Positions 15,708-37,350 of a stretch of DNA of 64,000 bases are shown here, piece after piece. The position numbers were made by a program, and so were the translations under genes. The number at the start of each line of letters is the position of its first letter. Within the stretch, counting starts at the first letter, position 1. Where the stretch lies: positions 1-64,000 of IMG/VR virus record IMGVR_UViG_3300048851_000105; one strand, written 5' to 3'. The notes below the pieces were generated by a model. It was not told the DNA's origin, made no database searches, and worked only from the letters and a program-made list of their open reading frames with translations. This DNA is from a virus.

Positions 15708-16400
15708 ATGAATCCCATGCCGACTCCCCTGACACCGCGACAGCGGGAACTCGTCGCCTCGAACAAGGGGCTGGCTGAGAAAATCTCACACGACTACCTC
15801 CAGCGTGCTCCTGGACTGGAGATCGACGAGGTGGTCGCTGTCGCCTACCAGGGCCTCATCGACGCCGCGCTCCGATTCGATCCGTCCCGTGGCGTCCCCT
15901 TCGGCGGATTCGCTCGGCAGATCATCCACTTCGCCATCCAGATGTGGCAGCGAGACGAGGACTACCTCCAGCGCAACATCCGCACGGACTACAAGAAGAT
16001 GCTGGAGAGCGGCTACACCGAGCGCGGCGGCATTAGTCCCTCCCTCGTCGAGCGGACCGGACTCACGATGAAGCGCATGGTGACCGTGGTCCGGGCCGTC
16101 GCCGCGAAGCCCACGAGCAGCGAGCATCTCGTTGAGGCAGAGGCGGTGCTCGCCCACCCCGACGTCGATGTCGAATCTTCTGTCGTGGTCTCGGCCATCC
16201 AGGGCTCCGTGGCCACCGTCTACCAGAGCCTCCCCGGCGTACAGCAGATCATCGTCGCCATGGTCTACTTCCAGGGCCTCGAACTCCGCCAGGTGGCCGA
16301 GAATCTCGGCACCAGCGTCTCCTTCGTCCGACAGTCCCACAGCGAGGCGGTCTCTCTCCTTCACGAGGAGATGGTTCGACAGGCACGCATGCCGGATTGA
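15708..16400 (+). CDS. RNA polymerase sigma factor, FliA/WhiG/SigF-like
   Basis: Region 2 (VAYQGLIDAALRFDPSRGVPFGGFA) and region 4 (IVAMVYFQGLELRQVAENLGTSVSFVRQSH). Confidence 0.9.
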   Translation: MNPMPTPLTPRQRELVASNKGLAEKISHDYLQRAPGLEIDEVVAVAYQGLIDAALRFDPSRGVPFGGFARQIIHFAIQMWQRDEDYLQRNIRTDYKKMLESGYTERGGISPSLVERTGLTMKRMVTVVRAVAAKPTSSEHLVEAEAVLAHPDVDVESSVVVSAIQGSVATVYQSLPGVQQIIVAMVYFQGLELRQVAENLGTSVSFVRQSHSEAVSLLHEEMVRQARMPD

Positions 16401-17480: not shown

Positions 17481-17659
17481 GCGTCGAGTGGAAGACCACC
17501 CCCATCGAGGAGGTCAAGGTCAACGACACCCTCCGCGGGCTCGGCGTCGTGCGCGAGGTCAACGACTTCGGCACCACGATCGTCATCACCACGGACGGCG
17601 GCGACTACCCGGCCAAGAAGGGCTTCGACTTCACGGCGGAGGTCTTGATCCGTGCCTGA
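17477..17659 (+). CDS. Hypothetical protein
   Basis: GTGA overlaps; resembles preceding ORF (EEVKVNDTL). Confidence 0.55.
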   Translation: MSVEWKTTPIEEVKVNDTLRGLGVVREVNDFGTTIVITTDGGDYPAKKGFDFTAEVLIRA

Positions 17660-19133
17660 CGCCCGCGAGCATGGCGCGTTCGTGCTCGGTGCGATCGTTC
17701 CCGGCCGTAGGGACCTCCTGGAGAAGGCCACCAGGGTCCTCACTACCGAGCACTTCGTCGCCACCGAGCAGCAGATGCTCTTCGGCCTGCTCACCCAGTA
17801 CCACGACCGAGTCGGAGGAGTCCTCACCCAGGGCGCCCTCGACGATCTCACCGCGCGCATCGACGTCGGCCGCGCCGCGATCTATCGGGAGGCCTACCTC
17901 GGCTACGCCGAATCTTCTGTCGGCGACGAGCAGTTCGAGTGGTCGCTCGATCAACTCCGTGAACTGGCCAGCGAGCGCGCGACGTCCGAGGCGATCGTCA
18001 ACGCCATGGAGATTCTCCGCACCGGCCAGGAGGTCGACGGAGAGCCACTGAAGGGCGCTGAGGACGCACGATCCTACCTCTCGCTTTCCCTGGGGCAGAT
18101 CGACCGCCAGATGACCATGCAGGCGGCCCCTGAGGGCGACGTGCGGGCCGAGGAGAAGGACATCCTGTCCGACTACCAGACCCGCAAGGAGATCGCTCTG
18201 AGCGGCGCCAGTCGCGGTGTGCTCTTCGGTGTCGACGCGCTCGACCAGAAGATCGGCGGGCTCCAGCGCGGCGAAGTCGTGCTCATCGCGGGCTACTCCT
18301 CGGACGGCAAGACGACCCTGCTCACTCAACTCGCGTGGTCTGCGGCGATCGAGCAGGGCAAGAACGTCGTCTTCTTCACCACGGAGACGCTGCGAGATCA
18401 GGTCCGCAGGAAGATTCTGGCCCGGCACTCGATGCTGGAGCAGTTCGGCCTGCACGCCACTGGCGGGATCAACTCCTACGACATCAAGAACGGCACGATC
18501 CCCGAGCCCCTCGAAGACAGATTTCGAGAAATCGTCTCTGACTTCACGAATAACCCCGACTACGGCACGGTCTACATCAAGCAGGTCCCGCGCGGTGCCA
18601 GCCTCACGTACCTGGAGCAGTCGCTCGCGAGCCTGGAGCGGAAGTTCGGGGTCGACCTCGTCTGCATGGACTACCTCGCCCTCCTCACCAGCGAGCGGAA
18701 GCGTGGCACCACCCGCGAGGAACTCGCCGCGATCATGAAGGACTCGAAGCAGATCGCGACGTCCTTCGGCGGCGGCAAGGGCGTGCCCCTCGTGAGCCCG
18801 TGGCAGGTCAGTCGCGCGGCTCGTGAGAAGGCAGCAGACGCAGGCAAGTACACCAGCGCCAGCCTCAGCGAGACGGCCGAGGCCACGAACACCGCGGACC
18901 TCATCGTGGGCCTGCTCGCGCCCATCGACAACAGCGAGCGTCGCGTGCAGGTCGACATGCAGATTCTGAAGAACCGCGACGGCCCTACGGCCAACGACTT
19001 GCGCGTGGACGTGGACTACGGCACCTCGTGGTTCCGCTCGCGCGCACTCCTCGGATCGGCTGCGACCATGCAGCCCGTCCACGCCTCCATGGCACCATCT
19101 TCGGGCGACCCGCTCGCAGACCTCATCGGCTGA
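17652..19133 (+). CDS. dnaB: DnaB-like replicative helicase
   Basis: LIAGYSSDGKTT Walker A, FFTTE, CMDYLALL, QVSR, KNRDGP. Confidence 0.9.
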   Translation: MPDAREHGAFVLGAIVPGRRDLLEKATRVLTTEHFVATEQQMLFGLLTQYHDRVGGVLTQGALDDLTARIDVGRAAIYREAYLGYAESSVGDEQFEWSLDQLRELASERATSEAIVNAMEILRTGQEVDGEPLKGAEDARSYLSLSLGQIDRQMTMQAAPEGDVRAEEKDILSDYQTRKEIALSGASRGVLFGVDALDQKIGGLQRGEVVLIAGYSSDGKTTLLTQLAWSAAIEQGKNVVFFTTETLRDQVRRKILARHSMLEQFGLHATGGINSYDIKNGTIPEPLEDRFREIVSDFTNNPDYGTVYIKQVPRGASLTYLEQSLASLERKFGVDLVCMDYLALLTSERKRGTTREELAAIMKDSKQIATSFGGGKGVPLVSPWQVSRAAREKAADAGKYTSASLSETAEATNTADLIVGLLAPIDNSERRVQVDMQILKNRDGPTANDLRVDVDYGTSWFRSRALLGSAATMQPVHASMAPSSGDPLADLIG

Positions 19134-22924: not shown

Positions 22925-23155
22925 GTGACTGAGAAGAGCCCGCTGACGCCGGACCAGAAGATTCTGGTCGATCGGATGCGCGCGCTCGCGGACGCCCGAG
23001 ACGACTACGACGACCCGAACGTCCGCTGCGGCACAGATGCGGTTCGGCTGGTCGCGGACATCCTCGAAGGCAAGAACGAGGGATGGGGCTGGCTCCCCTC
23101 TTGGCGCTGGAGTGAGTTCGGTGTCCCCGAACCGAGCGACGATGACGACCACTGA
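22925..23155 (+). CDS. Hypothetical protein
   Basis: GTG start after promoter; normal codon usage. Confidence 0.55.
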   Translation: MTEKSPLTPDQKILVDRMRALADARDDYDDPNVRCGTDAVRLVADILEGKNEGWGWLPSWRWSEFGVPEPSDDDDH

Positions 23156-23702
23156 CGAGCGCACGCCGTACCAGATCGCCAACGACATCACGACGATCTT
23201 CACGGCCATGCAGATGTGCGACATGGAGGTGCCGGACTTCGACTACGGCACCATGAAGGTCGACTGCCCGTTCGACGAGGAGCGCGCGTTCCGCGTGTAC
23301 GCCGCGACCAACTCGGCCTACTGCTTCGCCTGCTCGAAGAAGTACACCCCCGTGAGCCTCATCGCCGAGCACCGAGGCATTACGATCGAAGAAGCCGCCC
23401 GCACTCTCCTGGAGACTGCCGGGTGGACGCCCCCAACTCCGGACGCGAGATGGGATGCTCTCATGAGCGCATCCGTCGAGATCGACCGTCCGTCAGAAGC
23501 CGAAGCGCTGAAGATGTTCTGCGCCAGGATCGACCCGGAGTGGTCAACACGTCAGTTCGAGGAGCGCATCGCCGCTCTTCTGACGAAGTGTCTGGAGCCC
23601 TTGGACAAGGTGCACACCACTGAAGACCTCCACCTCTGGAGATCGACCACGCGACGCATCATGACGACTGCGCTGACCCCACAAGGAGCACCACATGGCT
23701 GA
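23142..23702 (+). CDS. Stand-alone primase-type zinc-binding domain protein
   Basis: KVDCPFD...AYCFAC...PVSLI....GITIEEAARTL (CHC2-like); no TOPRIM domain. Confidence 0.7.
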   Translation: MTTTDERTPYQIANDITTIFTAMQMCDMEVPDFDYGTMKVDCPFDEERAFRVYAATNSAYCFACSKKYTPVSLIAEHRGITIEEAARTLLETAGWTPPTPDARWDALMSASVEIDRPSEAEALKMFCARIDPEWSTRQFEERIAALLTKCLEPLDKVHTTEDLHLWRSTTRRIMTTALTPQGAPHG

Positions 23703-24178: not shown

Positions 24179-24208
24179 GGGGCTCCCCGTCTTCGGATGG
24201 GGAGCCCC
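24179..24208 (+). terminator. 13-bp hairpin with cUUCGg tetraloop in leader of second sigma gene
   Basis: GGGGCTCCCCGTC-TTCG-GATGGGGAGCCCC; no long U tract, so role uncertain. Confidence 0.55.
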
Positions 24209-24238
24209 GACTTACATCCCCTCCAGGAAGGTCAAGAC

Positions 24239-24943
24239 ATGCGCACCACCACTCCCCCCGTTCAACTGAACGTCGAGGCTCCCGGCACTCTGAAGGCCGA
24301 GATCGACGTCCGGCAGTCGAGGATCACCGACCACTCCGTCCCGGAGTCGTTCACGGAACTCTACGATCGCTACTACGGCTACGTGGTCCGGCTCGTGAAG
24401 CGTCGCGGCATCGCCCACAGTGATGTGGAAGACGTGGCCCAGACGATCTTCGCCCACTTCTATCGTCGCGGATCGCTCGAATACTTCGACGCCGAGCGTG
24501 TGGATGTGCACGACGGCAGGGAGTACACCGCCAAGTTCACGACCTTCCTCTCTGGATTCGTCGTCACGTACCTCCAGCACCACCTGACAATGCAGGAACG
24601 CAATGAGAATCGCATGGTTCGCAGCGGCGGCCTCGACAGCCTGATGGAAGACCCCACGGAGGAGAACTCCTGGGTCAACACCCGCGGACCTCGCTACGAC
24701 GACGACCACAGTCGGGTCGAGTACGTCGAGTTCGTCGAGAACCTCCACGTCCGGCTCTCCAGCGTCAAGCCGCGCTCAGCACGCACCGTCTGCGACCTGC
24801 CCGTGTTCTTCGAGGCCATCCGGAAGCAGATCGAGGTCAACGGCAAGTACGACGCCGACGAACTCGCCGCCCAGTTCGGAGTCGCGAGGCGCACGATCCA
24901 TAACTGGCTGGGCCTGCTCCGGGCCGAGTTGAACGGTCTCTGA
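24239..24943 (+). CDS. ECF-like sigma factor
   Basis: FTELYDRYYGYVVRLV...DVEDVAQTIF...KFTTFL region 2; C-terminal HTH ADELAAQFGVARRTIHNWL. Confidence 0.75.
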   Translation: MRTTTPPVQLNVEAPGTLKAEIDVRQSRITDHSVPESFTELYDRYYGYVVRLVKRRGIAHSDVEDVAQTIFAHFYRRGSLEYFDAERVDVHDGREYTAKFTTFLSGFVVTYLQHHLTMQERNENRMVRSGGLDSLMEDPTEENSWVNTRGPRYDDDHSRVEYVEFVENLHVRLSSVKPRSARTVCDLPVFFEAIRKQIEVNGKYDADELAAQFGVARRTIHNWLGLLRAELNGL

Positions 24944-24946
24944 GCC

Positions 24947-25732
24947 GTGGTCATCGGACACGCCGACATCGTCGCTCGCGTCGAGGCGGAGAAGCCTCCG
25001 GTGTCCCTGTTCCTCGGCCCATCGTCAGTCGGCAAGTGGACAGTCGCGGAGTACCTCCGGGGCGTCTGGCGCGTCGACGAGGGCGACACCCTGAGGATCG
25101 ATCACCTCAACACCGCCACGGCCCGCATGGTGGTCCACTTCGCCTCCCACGCCCCCTCACGGGACCGCAGGCTCGCGATCATCCAACTCACGGACGCCGG
25201 AGCCCACGCGCTCCACATCCTCCTGAAGACGCTGGAGGAAGGGCTCGGCTCCACCGACTTCATCCTCATCGCCGAGGAGTCGCCCCTCGCCACGATCGCG
25301 AGCCGGGCATCCGTCTACCGCTTCGGGTTCCTCACCGAGCCCGAGGTCGCCGAGGTCCTCACCGGCCGCAACTTCCAGCCCGAGGACGCCGCGCAGTACG
25401 CGAGCATGTCCGGCGGCCAGGTCTCCCGGGCCCTCTCCGTGGTCAACAACCGCGACGTCAAGCAGGGCGTCATGCAGGCCGTGAAGGCGTTTCGAGAAAT
25501 GGACCCCATAGCGTTGGAATCCGCGTCGAAGGAGTGGACCGACGAGCACAGCACGCTCCTGGCGCAGTGGTGCAGAGAATCTCTCACAGGTCGCACTCGA
25601 ATCTTCTCGACCGAAGAAATCCTCGACTCGCGCCGTATCCCGTTCAAGGTCCTCCAGGCCCTGAATGCCAACGTCCGGCCGCGGCTCTTGCTGCGGTCGA
25701 ACCTGATGTCCGTACTTCGACAGGAGGCCTGA
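24947..25732 (+). CDS. holB: Clamp-loader delta-prime (HolB)-like protein
   Basis: LFLGPSSVGK, HILLKTLEE, TIASRA; degenerate Walker B. Confidence 0.75.
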   Translation: MVIGHADIVARVEAEKPPVSLFLGPSSVGKWTVAEYLRGVWRVDEGDTLRIDHLNTATARMVVHFASHAPSRDRRLAIIQLTDAGAHALHILLKTLEEGLGSTDFILIAEESPLATIASRASVYRFGFLTEPEVAEVLTGRNFQPEDAAQYASMSGGQVSRALSVVNNRDVKQGVMQAVKAFREMDPIALESASKEWTDEHSTLLAQWCRESLTGRTRIFSTEEILDSRRIPFKVLQALNANVRPRLLLRSNLMSVLRQEA

Positions 25733-25733
25733 G

Positions 25734-26189
25734 ATGGGCTACGCAGTCTACGAGGACCGAGCCGCAGCCGATCTCGACGTCGCTCGCTGGGCAGGCTATG
25801 GCGTCCCGGCCGTCTGCGACATGCCGGATTGCGAGACGAAGATCAATCGAGGCATGGGCTATCGGTGCGAGCACGTCTACAAGGAGGCGTTCTTCCGCAA
25901 GGGCGAGCGCGTCGACATCGAGGATGACTGGGACGAAGAGCGCGTCGAGGAGCACCCCGGATGTGAGTTGCATTTCTGCGAGGAGCACCTGTACGACCAC
26001 GACAAGCACGAGGGCGTCGAGCCCAAGCCGGACACGGACGAGTGGGTGGCGTGGATGCTCACCGATCCGTCGTGGGGGCAGTGGCGCCGGGAGAACAAGA
26101 TCGACCGGAACACCCTCTATCAGCAACTGGCCGCCAAGGGCATGACTCTCCGGGATGTCAAGACCCTGGCAGTGGAGGCAGACTCATGA
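25734..26189 (+). CDS. Hypothetical Cys/His-rich protein
   Basis: GYGVPAVCD...CELHFCEEH. Confidence 0.65.
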   Translation: MGYAVYEDRAAADLDVARWAGYGVPAVCDMPDCETKINRGMGYRCEHVYKEAFFRKGERVDIEDDWDEERVEEHPGCELHFCEEHLYDHDKHEGVEPKPDTDEWVAWMLTDPSWGQWRRENKIDRNTLYQQLAAKGMTLRDVKTLAVEADS

Positions 26190-26413
26190 CGCACGTCCAC
26201 CCAGACGATCTTCGCCAGCGCGATCTCGACGAGTACGAGGTCACGCAGACCTTCCTCGCCGTCTACATCGGCCAGTGCACGATGGACAACCAGCATCCGA
26301 TCCGGCGCAACACGCGCGTCGGCCGGGTGCGCATGATCTCGAACCCGCTCATCCCGATCCCGGGCGTAGCCTGCGCCGACTGCGTGAGGCTCATGCCCCG
26401 TGCCGTGAGATGA
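26186..26413 (+). CDS. Hypothetical protein
   Basis: ATGA overlap; CADC motif. Confidence 0.55.
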   Translation: MTHVHPDDLRQRDLDEYEVTQTFLAVYIGQCTMDNQHPIRRNTRVGRVRMISNPLIPIPGVACADCVRLMPRAVR

Positions 26414-26697
26414 CTCAGGAACTGGTGTCCCTCCTCCCCATCGAAGAGGACGAGGGCGAGATCGAGTGGCGCTGCGAGATGCGCTACGACGATCCTGAGG
26501 TGAGGTGCGAGAACGAGCCCACGTGGGTCGCAGCGTTCGCGTGCACCTGCATAGGCGCAGCCTGTGACGACCACAAGAGGCTCTACACGGAGCGTCTGCG
26601 GACGATGTCCTTCCTCGGCATGGTCACCGTCAACTGCGCCGTGCACGGACGTGTGCAGTCCACCACCGAACAAGCCGTGACCTGGAGCCTGCTATGA
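26410..26697 (+). CDS. Hypothetical Cys-rich protein
   Basis: ATGA overlap; several Cys pairs. Confidence 0.55.
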   Translation: MTQELVSLLPIEEDEGEIEWRCEMRYDDPEVRCENEPTWVAAFACTCIGAACDDHKRLYTERLRTMSFLGMVTVNCAVHGRVQSTTEQAVTWSLL

Positions 26698-26936
26698 GTA
26701 ATACTCTCGTCTTCGACATTACGAATGCCCGTCCGGGAGAGTCCCAGTTGGCCCTTCTGAGAGAGCATGGGTTTGAAATCGACATGTCGGACGAGCGCAT
26801 TCGGGTCTCTACTCCTGAAGGGGCAGTAGTTCATCGGGAGGCGAGGCCCCATCAGTTCGTCTACTGCGTGCACTTTTCCAATTCCCGCGCTCTCGTGTCG
26901 TTCGACGGAGACTCTTTGGTGCAGGGGAGCGAGTAA
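26694..26936 (+). CDS. Hypothetical protein (lower GC3)
   Basis: ATGA overlap; fills the gap to the delta-like gene. Confidence 0.45.
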   Translation: MSNTLVFDITNARPGESQLALLREHGFEIDMSDERIRVSTPEGAVVHREARPHQFVYCVHFSNSRALVSFDGDSLVQGSE

Positions 26937-26939
26937 AGA

Positions 26940-27923
26940 GTGACGACCTGGAGTCAGTGGTTCGTCGCGCAGCAGAAGGAGCCGAAGGCCAAGCAGGTCA
27001 CCTTCCTCTGCGGTTCCGAGCCGATCCTCATCGACGAGGTCGTGACCCACATCACGACTCTGCTCGGCGTCAGCCCGTGGAACTACGTCGCGCTCGTGGC
27101 CGGAGAAGATTCGGACCGTGTGCTCTGGGCCGAACTGGAGCGCCATCCGATCGATCAGTCCTTCCGGCTCGTCGTCGTGCGTGACGCCGAGAAGATCAAG
27201 GACAGGGACCGGATCGAGGCCTGGGCCAAGAACAAGGCGGCCAATCCGAAGACCTACCTCGTGCTCATCTCCAACGAGCAGCGCATCCCCACCGTCCCGG
27301 CCGAGAAGCGCGGCGAGAAGCCCTCTCCCGAGCCCCACGTGGCCGCTCTCGCGCGTCGGGGGCAGGTGATCGAGTGTCGGCCCTTCACGCAGGCCACAGC
27401 CCGTCACGCGATCACCTGGGTGCGTTCCAAGGTGCACATGCCGGAGAACGTCGCAGCCCACCTGCTCAACCGAGCGAACGGAGACCTGCGCCTGGTGCGG
27501 GACACGTGCGTGAAGTTGGCCGTGCTCGATGACTCCGTCTCGATCAGCGTCATCGACGCCATGCTCAGCCAGCGCCCGCGGATCGACTTCCGGGAGGCTC
27601 TGCTTCAGCGCCGCAAGAAGGACGCCCTGTTCTCCCTCACCCGACTGGCGCCGGAGGAGTACGGCCGCGTGCTCGGACAGATCGATGCCGATCTCGACCT
27701 GGCCGGGCTCGTCTACGACCTGACCAACCAGCACGCCACGCAGGGCGAGATCGTGCGCGCCGCGGGCAAGATGGCGTTCCTCGTGCCGCACATGCAGCCG
27801 ATTGCGAAGCACTACGACCCGAAGCGCCGGACGGCCCTCCGCAGGCTCCTCGCAGTAGCGGACGAAGCGGTCCGCGGCGGAGAGAGAATCGGAGTCATGG
27901 AGAGTTTGGTGGCACAGTGGTGA
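26940..27923 (+). CDS. holA: Clamp-loader delta (HolA)-like protein
   Basis: TFLCGSEPILID, RLVVVRDAEKI, LLNRANGDLRLVRDTCVKLA. Confidence 0.75.
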   Translation: MTTWSQWFVAQQKEPKAKQVTFLCGSEPILIDEVVTHITTLLGVSPWNYVALVAGEDSDRVLWAELERHPIDQSFRLVVVRDAEKIKDRDRIEAWAKNKAANPKTYLVLISNEQRIPTVPAEKRGEKPSPEPHVAALARRGQVIECRPFTQATARHAITWVRSKVHMPENVAAHLLNRANGDLRLVRDTCVKLAVLDDSVSISVIDAMLSQRPRIDFREALLQRRKKDALFSLTRLAPEEYGRVLGQIDADLDLAGLVYDLTNQHATQGEIVRAAGKMAFLVPHMQPIAKHYDPKRRTALRRLLAVADEAVRGGERIGVMESLVAQW

Positions 27924-27946
27924 TCGAGCCGCGAATCACAGGCATG
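27912..27946 (+). promoter_or_regulatory. Phage-sigma leaderless promoter copy 3 (GCAC-N16-CGAATCACAGGC-ATG)
   Basis: Consensus match upstream of the polymerase operon. Confidence 0.7.
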
Positions 27947-28342
27947 AGCGTGGTCGGAGACATCCTGGCAGAGCCGCAAGCCGTCATCCTGTACGAGAGG
28001 GAGGACGAAGAAGCCGTTCGTGAAGTCATGCGTGACGTCACGACCGAGATGGCCGTCCAGATGGCTGTGTCCGATCCGCTCTTGTCGAGCCTCGTCGTCA
28101 TCGACAACGAGTCTCAAATCGAGAAATGGCCGGGGTGGCTGGACATCATCGTTCCGAGTGAGATCGATTCGTTGACCTTGCACTCTTCCCAGACGGTGGT
28201 GAGCCTGAGTCCTGCGTTCCTGCGGCGGCGACACTCGCTTGATCTCAGCCGCCTCGGCCGTTTCTACGCCATGACTCCAGACGCCGCGCTCGCCGAGCGC
28301 ATCAGCGTCGACACGATCATCCACCTGGAGAACGCAGCGTGA
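27944..28342 (+). CDS. Hypothetical protein
   Basis: Start set by motif; GTGA overlap with polymerase. Confidence 0.55.
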   Translation: MSVVGDILAEPQAVILYEREDEEAVREVMRDVTTEMAVQMAVSDPLLSSLVVIDNESQIEKWPGWLDIIVPSEIDSLTLHSSQTVVSLSPAFLRRRHSLDLSRLGRFYAMTPDAALAERISVDTIIHLENAA

Positions 28343-31300
28343 GCACCCGCAACTACGGCGTCGTCCGAACCGCACGAGAGTTCCTCACCCACGCACGCAG
28401 GCTGATGCAGACCCCGGAGATTCCGGTCGGGTTCGACATCGAGGCCGGTTACCGAGGCGAGGACAAGGACGGCGTCTCGCTCCTCCCCCACCACCCCGAC
28501 TGGCTCCTGGTCTCCTTCCAGTTCACCAACGGCCGCGACTGGGCCCGCATGGTGCCGATCGCTTTCGACGACACCTCGAAGAACGTGGACGACGTCGTCG
28601 CGACCGCCCGAATCTTGTGGCGGCTGGTCAACACCTGCAAGATCGTCCCCCACAACGCGAACTACGAACTCACCGGCGTCAGCCGCTGGTTCATGGAGAC
28701 GCTCGCGGATGACCCGATCGTGGGCGAGGAAGTCCGCGCCGTCGACGGATTCTTCCCGATCTTCACGGACTCGTACATCGAGGCCAAGATGCTCAACCAG
28801 TACGACCCGCTGCGCGTCGGCGCCGGTCTGAAGGGCCTGTCGAAGCACGTGCTCGGGCAGGAGATGACGGAGTTCCGCTCGCTCTTCCCCGACGAGGACA
28901 CGGACATGGGCCCGGCGACGAAGAAGTCGCGCCTGAAGTACATCCGCTTCAACACCCGCAACCCCGATAGCCCCCGGATCATCGACTACTCGTGCGAGGA
29001 CGCCACGGCGGCCTGGGAACTCAGCGACAAGCACCTCCCGGCGCTGAAGGACTCCGAGATGTGGATGATGTACCAGATCGAGATGCGCCTGCTCCCGATC
29101 CTCGTCGACATGGAGTACGAGGCGCTCGTGCTCGACTGGCCCGAGATTCATCGCCGCGCGGAGGAGATCAAGCGGTTCGGCGAACTCTACAACGAGGAGA
29201 TTCAGCAGGAGTTCGCCAAGCGCACCGGCCGCGCCACGCCTGTGCTCCTGTCGAGCCCGAAGCAGTTGGCCGACGTCCTGTTCAAGGACCCCGCCGAGGG
29301 CGGCCTCGGTCTGCCGGTCAAGAAGCGCTCGGACAAGACGCAGCAGCCGAGCACGGGCAACGACGCGCTCCGCGTCATCGCGCAGAAGGACGCGATCATC
29401 CGAGACATCCTCACCTGGCGACGCGTGAGCAAGTTGTACGGCTCCTACCTCAACAAGTACGACACCCAGTTGAACTACGCGGGCAACGGCCGTGCATACC
29501 CGAACCACAACCAGATCGGCGCAGGCACCGGCCGCATGTCGGTCGACGGCGTCCCCTACCAGCAGTGGCCGAAGCCGTACCACTTCGAGTTGAAGGACGG
29601 CACGTCGTTCGACCTCAACTTCCGTGACCTGCTCGTCTCGCCCGAGGGCTTCCGCATCGTCGGCTTCGACTACAGCCAGATCGAGTTGCGCATTCTGGCA
29701 GGCCAGGCGGGCGAGGACACCATGATCCAGGCCTTCAAGGACGGGGTGGACATTCACCGCGCCACGGCCGCGACCATGCTCCGTCGTCCGCTGGAGGACA
29801 TCGACAAGAAGCAGCGTGGCGTCGGCAAGACCTCGAACTTCGCCGTGGTCTACCAGTCCGGCGCTGAGAACATCGCCGACATGCTCACCGCCCAGGGGTC
29901 GCCCACGACCACCGAAGAGGCCGAGCAGATGCTGAAGGACTACTTCGCAGCGTTCCCCAAGTTGCGCGCCTACATGGACAAGTTGGTCACGGACGGCTCC
30001 AGCCAGCACTACATCATGACGCCGTTCGGCCGGAAGTTCACCATCTGGGAGTACAAGGACTCCCGGCAGTGGATTCGCGCCAAGGGCGATCGTCTGTGCG
30101 TCAACGCCCCCATCCAGGGTGGCGCGGCCGACTACATGAAGATCGGGCTCGTGCGGGCCTACAACGCCATCAAGAAGGCTGAGAAGGAGGGGCGCATCCC
30201 CCCGAAGAGCATCCGCCTGGTCATGAGCGTGCACGACGCGCTGGAGTTCTACGTGCACGAGTCCGTGGACACCCAGACGGTCATCGACCTGCTCGACCCC
30301 ATGGTGGCGTTCGATCACCCTGCGCTCGGAGGCGTGCCGATCCGCGCGGACTGGCACGAGGGACACCGCTGGGGACACGTCGTCGAGGTCCAGCGCGACG
30401 AGAGCGGCAAGATCACGGGTTACGTGAACGAGGACGACGATCAGGTCTTCGAGAACGTCGAGGACGCCTACGCCCGTGGGCTCGTGCTCGACGAGGAGAA
30501 GATGGCCAAGTACGCCCAGAAGATCGCCGACCGGCTCGCCCAGCAGCAGGGAGAGCAGCAGGCCGCGGCCGTCCAGGACAGCGACGACTTCGCAGACCTG
30601 CCTCACCCGTTCATCGCCGACTCGACCGAACTCTTCTGCGCCATCTGCGGGCAGGATGAGGATTCCACCAACCTGCACGATCTCGCGCTCGCCGAGGACA
30701 CCCAGAGCCTCCCCGGGCCTAGTCAGCCGGAGCCTCACCCGGGGCCCCCGTCCGACCCCGTGCCTGGTCAGGAGGAGAAGCCCAACACCGAGGAGGACCT
30801 CTTCGCGGAGATCGACGCCCTCATCGGGGTAGCGGATCAGGTCGTCCACGACCCCGAGCCTCCCATGGCGCTCGCGGAAGAAGATTCGGCGTTCACGGCA
30901 CTGGCCAAGGAGCAGGGCGAACTCCCCGGTCCGACCGTGCTCGATGCCATCGACGACGCTGTCGTTGAGGCGAAGGCGGCCGAGGCGCGCGAGCGCTTCC
31001 TGTCCGGCTCCACTACGGGCGGTCTCGACCACCAGCAGTTGAAGAGCGAGTTCTACCTGCGCTACCACAAGGAGGCCGAGCCGTTCGAGAGCCCGAGCGC
31101 GTGGCTGAAGCGTATCGGCGTCTCAGAGGACGAGGCTCGCGACGACGCGGACGCTCCCGAGTGGGCGCACACGCCCATGGAGCCGAAGACCGCACAGGAG
31201 GTGGATCAGGTCTGGGTGCTCACCGTCACCGAGATGCCCGATGAGGACCTCTACGAGGTCATGATGTCGTGGCTGAAGAAGATGGACGGCTACGTGCTTT

Positions 31301-31440
31301 CGCGAGTTATCCTCAGCACGCCCGAGGGGGACGTCGAACTGGGTGAGTTCGCGGTCGGCGCGGACAACCAGCACAAGGTCTCTCGTCTCGTGCACGGTCA
31401 GTTCGACATGGCGACTCGACCGAAGCGGGTGAACGCATGA
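28339..31440 (+). CDS. polA: Family A DNA polymerase with 3-5 exonuclease and about 350-aa C-terminal extension
   Basis: GFDIEA exo I; TGRMS, DYSQIELRILA, KTSNFAVVY, NAPIQGGAADYMK, VHDALEF. Confidence 0.93.
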   Translation: MSTRNYGVVRTAREFLTHARRLMQTPEIPVGFDIEAGYRGEDKDGVSLLPHHPDWLLVSFQFTNGRDWARMVPIAFDDTSKNVDDVVATARILWRLVNTCKIVPHNANYELTGVSRWFMETLADDPIVGEEVRAVDGFFPIFTDSYIEAKMLNQYDPLRVGAGLKGLSKHVLGQEMTEFRSLFPDEDTDMGPATKKSRLKYIRFNTRNPDSPRIIDYSCEDATAAWELSDKHLPALKDSEMWMMYQIEMRLLPILVDMEYEALVLDWPEIHRRAEEIKRFGELYNEEIQQEFAKRTGRATPVLLSSPKQLADVLFKDPAEGGLGLPVKKRSDKTQQPSTGNDALRVIAQKDAIIRDILTWRRVSKLYGSYLNKYDTQLNYAGNGRAYPNHNQIGAGTGRMSVDGVPYQQWPKPYHFELKDGTSFDLNFRDLLVSPEGFRIVGFDYSQIELRILAGQAGEDTMIQAFKDGVDIHRATAATMLRRPLEDIDKKQRGVGKTSNFAVVYQSGAENIADMLTAQGSPTTTEEAEQMLKDYFAAFPKLRAYMDKLVTDGSSQHYIMTPFGRKFTIWEYKDSRQWIRAKGDRLCVNAPIQGGAADYMKIGLVRAYNAIKKAEKEGRIPPKSIRLVMSVHDALEFYVHESVDTQTVIDLLDPMVAFDHPALGGVPIRADWHEGHRWGHVVEVQRDESGKITGYVNEDDDQVFENVEDAYARGLVLDEEKMAKYAQKIADRLAQQQGEQQAAAVQDSDDFADLPHPFIADSTELFCAICGQDEDSTNLHDLALAEDTQSLPGPSQPEPHPGPPSDPVPGQEEKPNTEEDLFAEIDALIGVADQVVHDPEPPMALAEEDSAFTALAKEQGELPGPTVLDAIDDAVVEAKAAEARERFLSGSTTGGLDHQQLKSEFYLRYHKEAEPFESPSAWLKRIGVSEDEARDDADAPEWAHTPMEPKTAQEVDQVWVLTVTEMPDEDLYEVMMSWLKKMDGYVLSRVILSTPEGDVELGEFAVGADNQHKVSRLVHGQFDMATRPKRVNA

Positions 31441-31961
31441 CGATCGTCGACAACCCCGAACTCGACCAGTACGAGGTCCCGCTGCGTAGGGCTGAGCGGA
31501 CTGCGCTCGCCTGGCGCGACGAGGCTCTCGCGCTCCGCCGAGGCATCGGTCCCGAGGTCCTGGAGGTCGAGACCGGCGCAGAGGCTCTCCTGGCCATCAG
31601 GAGGGTCGTAGCCGCCCAGGACCGGGTAGATGCCCTCTTGGAGGATTCCAGGGCTCTCATGGGCCGTATGCGCCGTGCCAGGGACGACACACGCGCTGCG
31701 GCGGAGGAGCAGGTGGACGCCGCCATCGCCAACGAGGCGGGGCGCCGGATCGAGTACCAGGGCGCGGCCGATCGTCGCGCAGCAGCCAACGTGGCGGCCG
31801 TGGAGCAGCGCCGCGCGCAGCGTCTCCTCGACCGTGCGTACGACACGCTGAAGGAGGCGTACGACTCGATCAGCGCCTCCCGCTGGCAACTGAACACCCT
31901 TCGCGAAGACCTGAGGTCGACCCTCAACGTCTTCCGATTCGAGAACTCGTTGGATCGATAG
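31437..31961 (+). CDS. Helical protein, possibly a UvsY-like recombination mediator
   Basis: All-helical; AYDSISASRWQLNTLRE...FRFE end resembles UvsY; sits before SSB and RecA. Confidence 0.4.
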   Translation: MTIVDNPELDQYEVPLRRAERTALAWRDEALALRRGIGPEVLEVETGAEALLAIRRVVAAQDRVDALLEDSRALMGRMRRARDDTRAAAEEQVDAAIANEAGRRIEYQGAADRRAAANVAAVEQRRAQRLLDRAYDTLKEAYDSISASRWQLNTLREDLRSTLNVFRFENSLDR

Positions 31962-32056: not shown

Positions 32057-33154
32057 ATGCCTGAAATCGACTACGGCAAGGCCAACGCCAAGGTCTCGAA
32101 GATCAACTACGACTACCCCAAGTTGAAGTTGGGCAAGGACGAGAAGGCACGCATCGTGCTCATCGAGAAGAGCCCGGTCTTCGAGTGGGTGCACGAACTC
32201 CGGCGTCCCAAGATCGTCGACGGCGTCCCCCAGATGGAGACGAAGCAGCGCCGCGACAAGACCGAGTACCAGGACCACGTCATGGACTTCCTCTCGAAGC
32301 CCATCTGCCTCGGTGACGCGGGCACGCTCGACAACGACGGCCTCGACCCGAAGAACTGCCCGGTCTGCGCGCTCGCCAAGCGCAACCCGGATGCCACCAA
32401 GGCTCCGGTCCGTCGCTTCGCCACGCACGTCATCCGCTACCAGACGCGCGGCGGCACGTATGACATCACCAACCCGTTCAGCGTCGAGGTGCTCGTGTGG
32501 TCGTTCACCGAGCGCATGTTCGCCCAGATCAGCGAGTTCCGCGAGGACTGGGGCGACCTGCGTGCGAAGGACCTCAACCTGCTGTGCACGAACCAGACCT
32601 TCCAGAACTACGACATCAACGTCGCGTCGAAGACCGAGTACCTCACGGACGACGCGCGTACGCAGATCGTGAAGGCCGCGTACGCGAACAACCGCATCGA
32701 GGACCTCACGATCGCCTGCGGTCGGCAGACGGAGGAGCGCTGGCTCCTCTCGGACATCCAGAAGATCGAGGAGGCGTGGGCCGAGGTCAGCGCGATCAAG
32801 CGGGGCTCGCCGTCGACCACGTCGCTCATGGACGACCTCGGCGCCATCGCACAGCAGGACGGCCAGTGGGCCGCGCAGGCGCCCGCCGCCGACGAGCCCG
32901 CGTCCAGTGCACCGGCTCAGGCCGTGCAGCAGGCTCAGAAGCCCGCTCCTGCGGCGTCTTCGACCGACCTCGACGCTATGTTCGACGGCATCGACACGGC
33001 TCCGGCTCGTGAGAAGATCACGGACGAGCCCGCGGCCGAGGAGATCACTCCGGAAGCGCCCGCGCCCGAGGCACCGAAGTCCGCTCCCGCCGCCCCTGCT
33101 CCGGCAGCCGCGGCGAACGTGACCGACGACCTCGACGCCCTGCTCGGCGCGTAA
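32057..33154 (+). CDS. T4 gp32-like single-stranded DNA-binding protein
   Basis: HELR...PICLG...CPVC core, Ala/Pro linker, acidic tail DDLDALLGA. Confidence 0.75.
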   Translation: MPEIDYGKANAKVSKINYDYPKLKLGKDEKARIVLIEKSPVFEWVHELRRPKIVDGVPQMETKQRRDKTEYQDHVMDFLSKPICLGDAGTLDNDGLDPKNCPVCALAKRNPDATKAPVRRFATHVIRYQTRGGTYDITNPFSVEVLVWSFTERMFAQISEFREDWGDLRAKDLNLLCTNQTFQNYDINVASKTEYLTDDARTQIVKAAYANNRIEDLTIACGRQTEERWLLSDIQKIEEAWAEVSAIKRGSPSTTSLMDDLGAIAQQDGQWAAQAPAADEPASSAPAQAVQQAQKPAPAASSTDLDAMFDGIDTAPAREKITDEPAAEEITPEAPAPEAPKSAPAAPAPAAAANVTDDLDALLGA

Positions 33155-36744: not shown

Positions 36745-37350
36745 ATGACCGTGCAGTTCCAGGCTCCCAAGCCACACGCCCTGTTCTGGATCGACATCGA
36801 GGCCACAGCCCTGTCGAAGAAGAACGACTTCAGCGACGTGCATCCCCTCGAATTGGCCGTCATCGTGACGGACTTCGACCTCGAACCCATGGCGGGCTAC
36901 GAAGCCGTCATCACGCCCACAGCGGAGACAGTGGCCTCCCTGCGCCGGAACCCTCAGGCGCTGGAGATGCACCGCGCCAACGGGCTCGTGGCGGCGCTGA
37001 AGGGCACCACAGAGACCGTGGAGGAGGTCGAGCAGAACCTCATCCAGATGCTGAAGACGAAGACCGCCCTCCAGCCGGGTGAGTTCATGATCGCGGGCTC
37101 CGGCGTCGCCCGCTACGACTACGGTCTCCTCGACAAGTGGATGCCCGCGCTCACCTCGTGGTTCGCCTACTACCCCTTCGACATCGGCGTCATGCGCCGG
37201 ACCGCCAAGATTCTCTCCGGCGGCCGACAGATCGTCGAGCCGAACACGGCGTCGTATGGCGACGAGAAGTTGCACCGTGCTCGTGCCGACGTCGAAGCCC
37301 ACCTGGCCGAAGCGCGCCAGTGGCAGGACTGGTTCCGGAGGGCGTCATGA
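36745..37350 (+). CDS. orn: Oligoribonuclease (DEDDh)
   Basis: LFWIDIEAT, ELAVIVTDFDL, MHRANGL, HRARADV. Confidence 0.85.
   Translation: MTVQFQAPKPHALFWIDIEATALSKKNDFSDVHPLELAVIVTDFDLEPMAGYEAVITPTAETVASLRRNPQALEMHRANGLVAALKGTTETVEEVEQNLIQMLKTKTALQPGEFMIAGSGVARYDYGLLDKWMPALTSWFAYYPFDIGVMRRTAKILSGGRQIVEPNTASYGDEKLHRARADVEAHLAEARQWQDWFRRAS

Follow-up and report, generated by a model that had tools for sequence, protein, structure and literature searches.

DNA polymerase families A and C are unrelated. In Pol III, a family C enzyme, the clamp loader's tau subunit docks on the C-terminal domain (CTD) of DnaE1, the alpha subunit. Here we describe a phage locus in which a domain of this type is found at the end of a family A polymerase (PolA). 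The locus covers positions 24,947 to 31,440 of a 64,000-nucleotide stretch of DNA (the window; positions 1 to 64,000 of the IMG/VR virus record IMGVR_UViG_3300048851_000105), and we analysed it together with the rest of the genome, following up an earlier interpretation made from the letters of the window alone (the sequence-only reading).

The tau-binding domain of Escherichia coli alpha comprises residues 1079–1160, and tau binds to it through its final ∼23 residues (PMC4703070). This CTD is the tau-binding element of the replicative enzyme and is absent from the non-replicative DnaE2 (PMC3919608). Among phages, Ma-LMM01 and RSL1 were predicted to encode PolA together with polIII-beta and polIII-gamma, and a beta-type clamp was proposed as the processivity factor of PolA (Kazlauskas and Venclovas 2011, PMC3201878). 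Streptococcus phage Dp-1 (HQ268735) is annotated with DnaN (gp10), DnaX (gp17), gp18, HolA (gp19), DnaB (gp67) and DNA polymerase I (gp71). A PolA combined with a clamp and loader of bacterial type is known from such annotation and prediction; we found no biochemical study of it in phages, and our literature searches returned no paper describing a DnaE-type CTD on a family A polymerase.

The window is the first part of a complete phage genome of 125,778 bp (100% complete, with direct terminal repeats). Its G+C content is about 65%; the host is likely a high-GC bacterium, with Actinomycetota as the likely phylum. A megablast search with this region among 50,697 phage records gave zero matches. 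The relatives used below are from IMG/VR, with the addition of Microbacterium phage Magritte (OR553905); we found no other isolated relative.

A DnaE-type C-terminal domain on the phage polymerase

The last part of PolA (about 75 amino acids, aa) is predicted to form a beta-alpha-beta-beta-alpha-beta domain, which AlphaFold2 (AF2) models with a predicted local distance difference test score (pLDDT) of 81–89. The top four PDB matches of this model in Foldseek are Pol III alpha chains. VIA-align, which is independent of Foldseek and was run against 48,161 chains, ranks the alpha subunit of Taq first (2hpi; Z 9.0, root mean square deviation, rmsd, of 2.3 Å over 73 residues, chain positions 1127–1205) and that of E. 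coli second (5fku; Z 7.2, chain positions 1078–1160), with the third rank at only 4.6. A second VIA-align comparison adds 3e0d (Z 8.8), 4iqj (8.0) and 5fkv (6.3), followed by the next fold at 4.4. All top five entries are the alpha CTD (positions 1078–1160 in E. coli and 1127–1206 in Taq), with rmsd of 2.2–2.5 Å over 72–75 residues.

Comparison of profiles gave the same assignment. We aligned 154 PolA CTDs with DnaE1 C-termini (n = 76, mostly from Actinomycetota and gathered by a motif scan, with E. coli added) using hhalign: the two families match over 69 columns (Prob 82.8, P 9.4e-6), in register up to the C-terminal end of DnaE1, with a score of 36.0 against at most 14.0 for the controls (the reversed alignment and 30 column-shuffled ones). 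The domain is terminal in PolA (residues 955–1029 of 1033), and it is preceded by a disordered linker and not by HhH and OB domains. Its fold, the profile–profile comparison and its extreme C-terminal position support the conclusion that the last ∼75 aa of PolA are DnaE-CTD-like. The sequence-only reading had guessed as much by eye from a terminal segment, which we find exactly at 31210–31398.

The domain is kept in 15 out of 15 IMG/VR relatives and in Magritte (34% identity over 86 aa), and is single-copy in this genome. A profile built from it finds 163 clusters among 1.84 billion representatives, and all eight long members that were scanned are PolA proteins. About 11 of the 163 clusters are giant repetitive proteins with many short matched stretches, which we treated as false positives. 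A word-index search with PolA residues 740–1033 returned the query alone, Magritte was the sole match when a typical CTD was compared with the phage collection by tblastn, and a fold search of BFVD gave nothing significant except one uncultured-phage polymerase (prob 0.72).

Between the polymerase core and the CTD is a linker of about 235 aa (residues ∼716–950) with 22.6% D+E and 9.4% P; the modelled part has pLDDT of about 50. The sequence-only reading had described it as acidic and Pro-rich and had named two motifs in it. The composition and the presence of both motifs hold, a D-L-F-containing acidic motif being at residues 817–828 (30787–30822) and a Cys-containing one at residues 767–772, but neither is conserved in the relatives. 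It is speculation from the sequence that the D-L-F motif, which resembles the C-terminal tail of one relative, is a counterpart of it. The sole conserved linker element in the alignment of the relatives is P-x-W-x-H-T-P at residues 940–946 (31156–31176): in the form P-x-W-x-H-(S/T)-P, preceded by acidic residues, it is kept in most relatives immediately upstream of the CTD, and it may be a second docking element.

The core itself is that of a proofreading family A polymerase, with a PF00476 match at residues 286–679 (254 bits, the cut-off being 34.3), motifs A, B and C, and exonuclease motifs; Exo I–III and motifs A and B are intact. PolA shares 48% identity with gp69 of Magritte over residues 1–715, and judging from this alignment the core ends near residue 715; the extension beyond the core, given earlier as about 350 aa, is about 300–350 aa. 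In a genome-wide profile search PolA is the only recognisable replicative polymerase, with one PF00476 match and no PF07733 (DnaE) or PF00136 (PolB) match in the 125,778 bp.

Two observations concern the catalytic part of the protein. Motif C (window 30229–30246) reads H-D-A, not the usual H-D-E; the same H-D-A is found in Magritte and in nine of the 10 IMG/VR relatives examined (the tenth, L013, has H-D-S), so that by sequence it appears close to a family trait. Several metagenomic PolA homologues with the CTD hold inteins (LAGLIDADG or Hint domains) within the polymerase domain.

The phage encodes its own clamp and clamp loader

Two clamp-loader genes precede polA, and both calls of the sequence-only reading, HolB-like and HolA-like, stand. 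The delta-prime-like protein matches phrog_5846 ('clamp loader') with an E-value of 2.7e-9, and PF13177 with 22 bits (under the cut-off of 27). A profile of 11 delta-prime orthologues retrieves gamma/tau, RFC and delta-prime chains from PDB (4e-16 to 2e-6). The protein has an AAA+ fold with a degenerate Walker A motif; the acidic pair of Walker B is D-A, without the catalytic Glu, and the Arg of the SRC-type arginine-finger motif is kept, here written S-R-A, as expected of a delta-prime subunit. The gene is syntenic in all relatives.

The delta-like protein has no match in Pfam or PHROG. Its family profile, however, matches Bacillus subtilis delta (3zh9_B) over the full length (residues 9–321, E 1.4e-7), and its AF2 model (pLDDT 85) has 3zh9 as the top Foldseek match (2.7e-12), followed by clamp-loader subunits only. 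Family profiles were required for both proteins: phmmer searches of PDB with the single delta and delta-prime sequences gave nothing useful.

It had been stated that no DnaX or sliding clamp is visible, which is true of the 64-kb window only: both are encoded elsewhere in the genome. The beta sliding clamp matches PF00712 (29.3 bits) and PF02768 (33.8 bits) above their cut-offs and PF02767 just below (25.6 against 27). The longest ORF (open reading frame) of this gene, 87975–89501 on the minus strand, would give 508 aa, of which the first ∼115, rich in Arg, look non-coding; a start at 89153 is likely, giving a protein of 392 aa in line with the relatives. The DnaX-type ATPase is gamma-sized: with 362 aa and no PF12170 match at E ≤ 10, tau domains IV and V were not found in it. 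All five relatives that were checked (Magritte and four near-complete IMG/VR genomes) carry DnaX and the clamp as well.

Co-occurrence of a DnaX tail with the C-terminal domain

In this phage and in the five relatives, DnaX continues after the collar with a Pro-rich linker of 20–30 aa, and a conserved amphipathic peptide forms its C-terminus; the whole extension is about 37 aa in this phage. In distant DnaX members we also observed a variant of the peptide ending L-L-G or L-G-G, recalling actinobacterial tau tails.

We fetched 80 phage loci with DnaX relatives and searched the 45 long contigs among them. PolA is found in 43 of these 45 contigs, and in all 32 of those at least 90% complete. The CTD profile matches 20 contigs, always in the PolA frame. 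The length of the DnaX extension after the collar separates the two groups: it is 26–45 aa wherever PolA bears the CTD (20 of 20 contigs), and 16 aa or less wherever it does not (23 of 23). Phage Dp-1 fits the pattern, with a PolA without the CTD and a DnaX without the tail.

Proposed replisome and alternative explanations

We propose, at about an even chance of being right, that the phage builds a replisome in the style of the Pol III holoenzyme, in which a proofreading family A polymerase replaces DnaE and the CTD tethers PolA to the phage clamp loader. Its parts would be PolA and the phage beta clamp, gamma-sized DnaX, delta, delta-prime, DnaB-type helicase, primase and SSB. The CTD, on its long flexible acidic linker, would tether PolA to the loader; its likeliest ligand would be the conserved amphipathic peptide that ends the phage DnaX, making this protein a 'mini-tau'. 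The loader would then both load the phage clamp and retain PolA at the fork, the role that tau has for alpha. In most relatives the CTD of PolA is followed by a further conserved tail (V-D, three residues, L, two residues, G, a hydrophobic residue, any residue, L or F, and the stop). The placement of this tail recalls C-terminal clamp-binding peptides, and the hydrophobic tail could plug into the clamp.

Several observations weigh against this proposal. On the DnaX tree the 20 contigs whose PolA bears the CTD fall into a single clade (one change; Shimodaira–Hasegawa-like approximate likelihood ratio test support, SH-aLRT, of 98), so that the co-occurrence of CTD and DnaX tail is a single evolutionary event, not independent replication or statistical proof; the association is one event retained without loss across deep divergence. 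The DnaX peptide also somewhat resembles a clamp-binding motif. The tau subunits of E. coli and Taq engage the alpha CTD differently, with no shared homology (PMC4703070), and the partner of the phage CTD is for this reason not readable from homology. For the clamp contact, the conserved PolA tail is missing from the PolA of this phage and of a few others (in this genome it is not encoded in any other frame at the 3' end of the gene either). As to the domain itself, its sequence identity to alpha CTDs is just 5–18% and its fold is a common ferredoxin-like one; PF20914 (DNA_pol_IIIA_C) matches nothing in the genome at E ≤ 10, although this model is insensitive, reaching its own cut-off in only one out of 14 control genomes, and the CTD profile has no match in the E. 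coli K-12 chromosome at E ≤ 10. Both negative searches fit the known poor conservation of the alpha CTD (PMC3919608).

The different modes of binding in E. coli and Taq also leave room for another partner: the CTD could bind a different part of the phage replisome (the beta clamp, the DnaB-like helicase, the primase or SSB), the domain having been reused as a general tether. B. subtilis DnaE3, which has the same domain architecture, is retained at the fork through the SSB tail and not through tau (PMC3919608), and the P-x-W-x-H motif and the conserved PolA tail of the relatives point to the presence of several docking elements. We found no specific signal for any of these partners, however, and the DnaX extension is the only feature found that tracks the CTD; we consider a general tether unlikely.

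The sequence-only reading had suggested instead that PolA docks on the host Pol III scaffold, with the phage delta and delta-prime entering host DnaX complexes. In such a model the CTD would bind host tau, and tau would connect PolA to the host helicase or clamp loader. For host tau as the partner speak the nearest sequence relatives of the CTD, which are DnaE1 C-termini (in a comparison set mostly from Actinomycetota, the likely host phylum), the conserved peptide at the end of Actinomycetales tau, and the phage DnaX, which lacks tau domains IV and V; no peptide like the Actinomycetales tau tail is found in the phage proteome, where a six-frame regular-expression scan gave wrong-frame matches only. 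The exchange of subunits fails on its premise, and by a finding that the sequence-only reading had itself named as refuting it: this phage, like all five near-complete relatives checked, encodes DnaX, delta, delta-prime and beta, and has no need to insert delta and delta-prime into host DnaX complexes or to use host subunits at all. Docking on a host Pol III scaffold keeps its first half, the DnaE-CTD-like domain, but host tau is now the less economical partner, since the phage DnaX has a conserved C-terminal peptide of its own that co-occurs with the PolA CTD. Nor does an identity of about 16% to DnaE1 CTDs point to a specific host being mimicked, and we regard this explanation as improbable.

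A narrower version, slightly less probable still, is that the CTD is a molecular copy of the DnaE1 docking domain of the host that captures host tau early in infection; if true, such capture would pull the phage polymerase onto the host helicase–tau assembly, displace host Pol III, or both, combining hijack with shut-off. Actinomycetales tau proteins themselves are 650–1200 aa long, with long low-complexity linkers and a terminal peptide of the type L-V-G-x-P-V-V-E-x-L-L-G-G-x-V-I, which is probably their DnaE1-binding element.

Convergence is also quite doubtful; in that case the CTD would be a generic ferredoxin- or ACT-like module serving some unrelated purpose, for instance ligand sensing, dimerisation or DNA binding. 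In its favour, the beta-alpha-beta-beta-alpha-beta fold occurs very widely, common arrangements can reach Z values of 7–9, and PF20914 and the direct E. coli profile search give nothing. Against it, the top five structural matches are one domain of one family from two distant bacteria, separated from every other ferredoxin-like fold by a gap of ∼2 Z units or more; the independent profile–profile comparison (P 9.4e-6) has clean controls; and a replicase carries the domain at its very C-terminal end, as DnaE does, in a clamp-loader genomic context.

Genomic context of the polymerase gene

The features of the locus and the replication genes found elsewhere in the genome are listed in Table 1; all ORFs reported by the sequence-only reading were found at the coordinates it gave.

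Table 1. Features of the polA locus and related replication genes (positions up to 64,000 are in the window; those above are in the remainder of the genome)
Feature	Position	Strand	Basis or remark
DnaB-like replicative helicase	17652..19133	+	PF03796, 93 bits
Primase-type CHC2 zinc-ribbon protein	23037..23702	+	PF01807, 22 bits, under cut-off
Delta-prime-like clamp-loader subunit, 261 aa	24947..25732	+	phrog_5846; family profile against PDB
Three small ORFs, function unknown	25734-26189, 26155-26697, 26694-26936	+	PHROGs of unknown function only
Delta-like (HolA-type) subunit, 327 aa	26940..27923	+	Family profile; AF2 model
141-aa ORF, function unknown	27917..28342	+	No family match; stop overlaps PolA start
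Family A DNA polymerase (PolA), 1033 aa	28339..31440	+	PF00476, 254 bits
3'-5' exonuclease region of PolA	28432..29004	+	Exo I, II and III-like motifs at residues 32-37, 105-111 and 217-222 (read from translation)
Polymerase domain of PolA	29194..30375	+	Motif A 444-451, motif B 493-505, motif C 631-636
Acidic, Pro-rich linker of PolA, residues ∼716-950	30484..31188	+	Composition; poor conservation
C-terminal beta-alpha-beta-beta-alpha-beta domain of PolA, residues ∼955-1029	31201..31425	+	Homologous to tau-binding CTD of Pol III alpha (DnaE1)
174-aa helical protein	31437..31961	+	Conserved; start overlaps PolA stop, translationally coupled
SSB-like protein	32057..33154	+	42% identity to Magritte gp72 (annotated single-stranded DNA binding protein)
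DEDD/RNase_T-type exonuclease	36745-37350		23.4 bits, just under cut-off
Beta sliding clamp	87975-89153	-	Genome beyond window; three DnaN domains
DnaX-type AAA+ ATPase, 362 aa, gamma-sized	94510-95598	+	PF13177, 70 bits; AAA domain; DnaX lid

The stretch between the delta-prime and delta genes (25734..26936) differs between relatives, and the 141-aa ORF in front of polA is seen in two relatives only. The gene downstream of polA, encoding the 174-aa protein, is found there in all relatives and adjoins the SSB-like gene and a RecA gene, the latter also inside the window. We considered the 174-aa protein as a tau-like partner and dropped it: its Atlas model is all-helical, there is a weak UvsY lead, and the gene lies beside SSB and RecA. 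It is probably a recombination mediator, outside the clamp-loader link.

At the position syntenic with the primase-type gene Magritte annotates a primase. The DEDD/RNase_T-type gene could encode an epsilon-like proofreader or a recombination exonuclease, and Magritte has an exonuclease annotated at the syntenic site. Two sigma-70-family genes are found in the window, at 15708–16400 and 24197–24943; the second is directly upstream of the delta-prime gene and is kept there in relatives.

Comparison with known systems

That a Pol I-type enzyme carries the docking domain of Pol III shows that such replisome modules can pass between polymerases that are not homologous, and suggests the link from clamp loader to polymerase, not the catalytic core, as the conserved design element. 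PolA-based clamp-loader replisomes look common in phages, given the 43 out of 45 DnaX-bearing contigs sampled. The CTD and the terminal peptide of DnaX are a concrete pair for testing, and Magritte infects Microbacterium foliorum.

Magritte has the same gene order, with the PolA CTD, DnaX, delta, delta-prime and the clamp, and its PolA keeps the C-terminal tail that is missing here. In its record gp4, gp62, gp67 and gp247, which are its DnaX, delta-prime, delta and beta-clamp homologues, are all labelled 'ASCE ATPase', although the clamp is no ATPase; our assignments correct this annotation to a clamp and three loader subunits. Phage Dp-1 likewise has a bacterial-type clamp, a multi-subunit loader and PolA, but its PolA of 779 aa ends at the polymerase domain, without a CTD, and its DnaX ends at the collar, without a tail. 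In Ma-LMM01 and RSL1 only one loader subunit was found; the present phage adds delta, delta-prime and a docking domain on the polymerase.

Compared with the alpha CTD of Pol III (5FKU and 5FKV of E. coli, 2HPI, 3E0D and 4IQJ of Taq; PF20914), the phage domain has the same fold, the same terminal position and similarity at the profile level; it is carried, however, by a family A and not a family C polymerase, and a disordered linker of ∼235 aa replaces the HhH and OB domains. On the side of the loader, the alpha CTD is bound by the C-terminus of E. coli tau (Jergic et al. 2007, cited in PMC4703070), in which a flexible linker and a short terminal peptide make the contact. The phage DnaX differs from tau in having no domains IV and V and a tail unlike known tau tails by sequence, and its contact with PolA is one that we infer; in its layout, however, it is tau in miniature.

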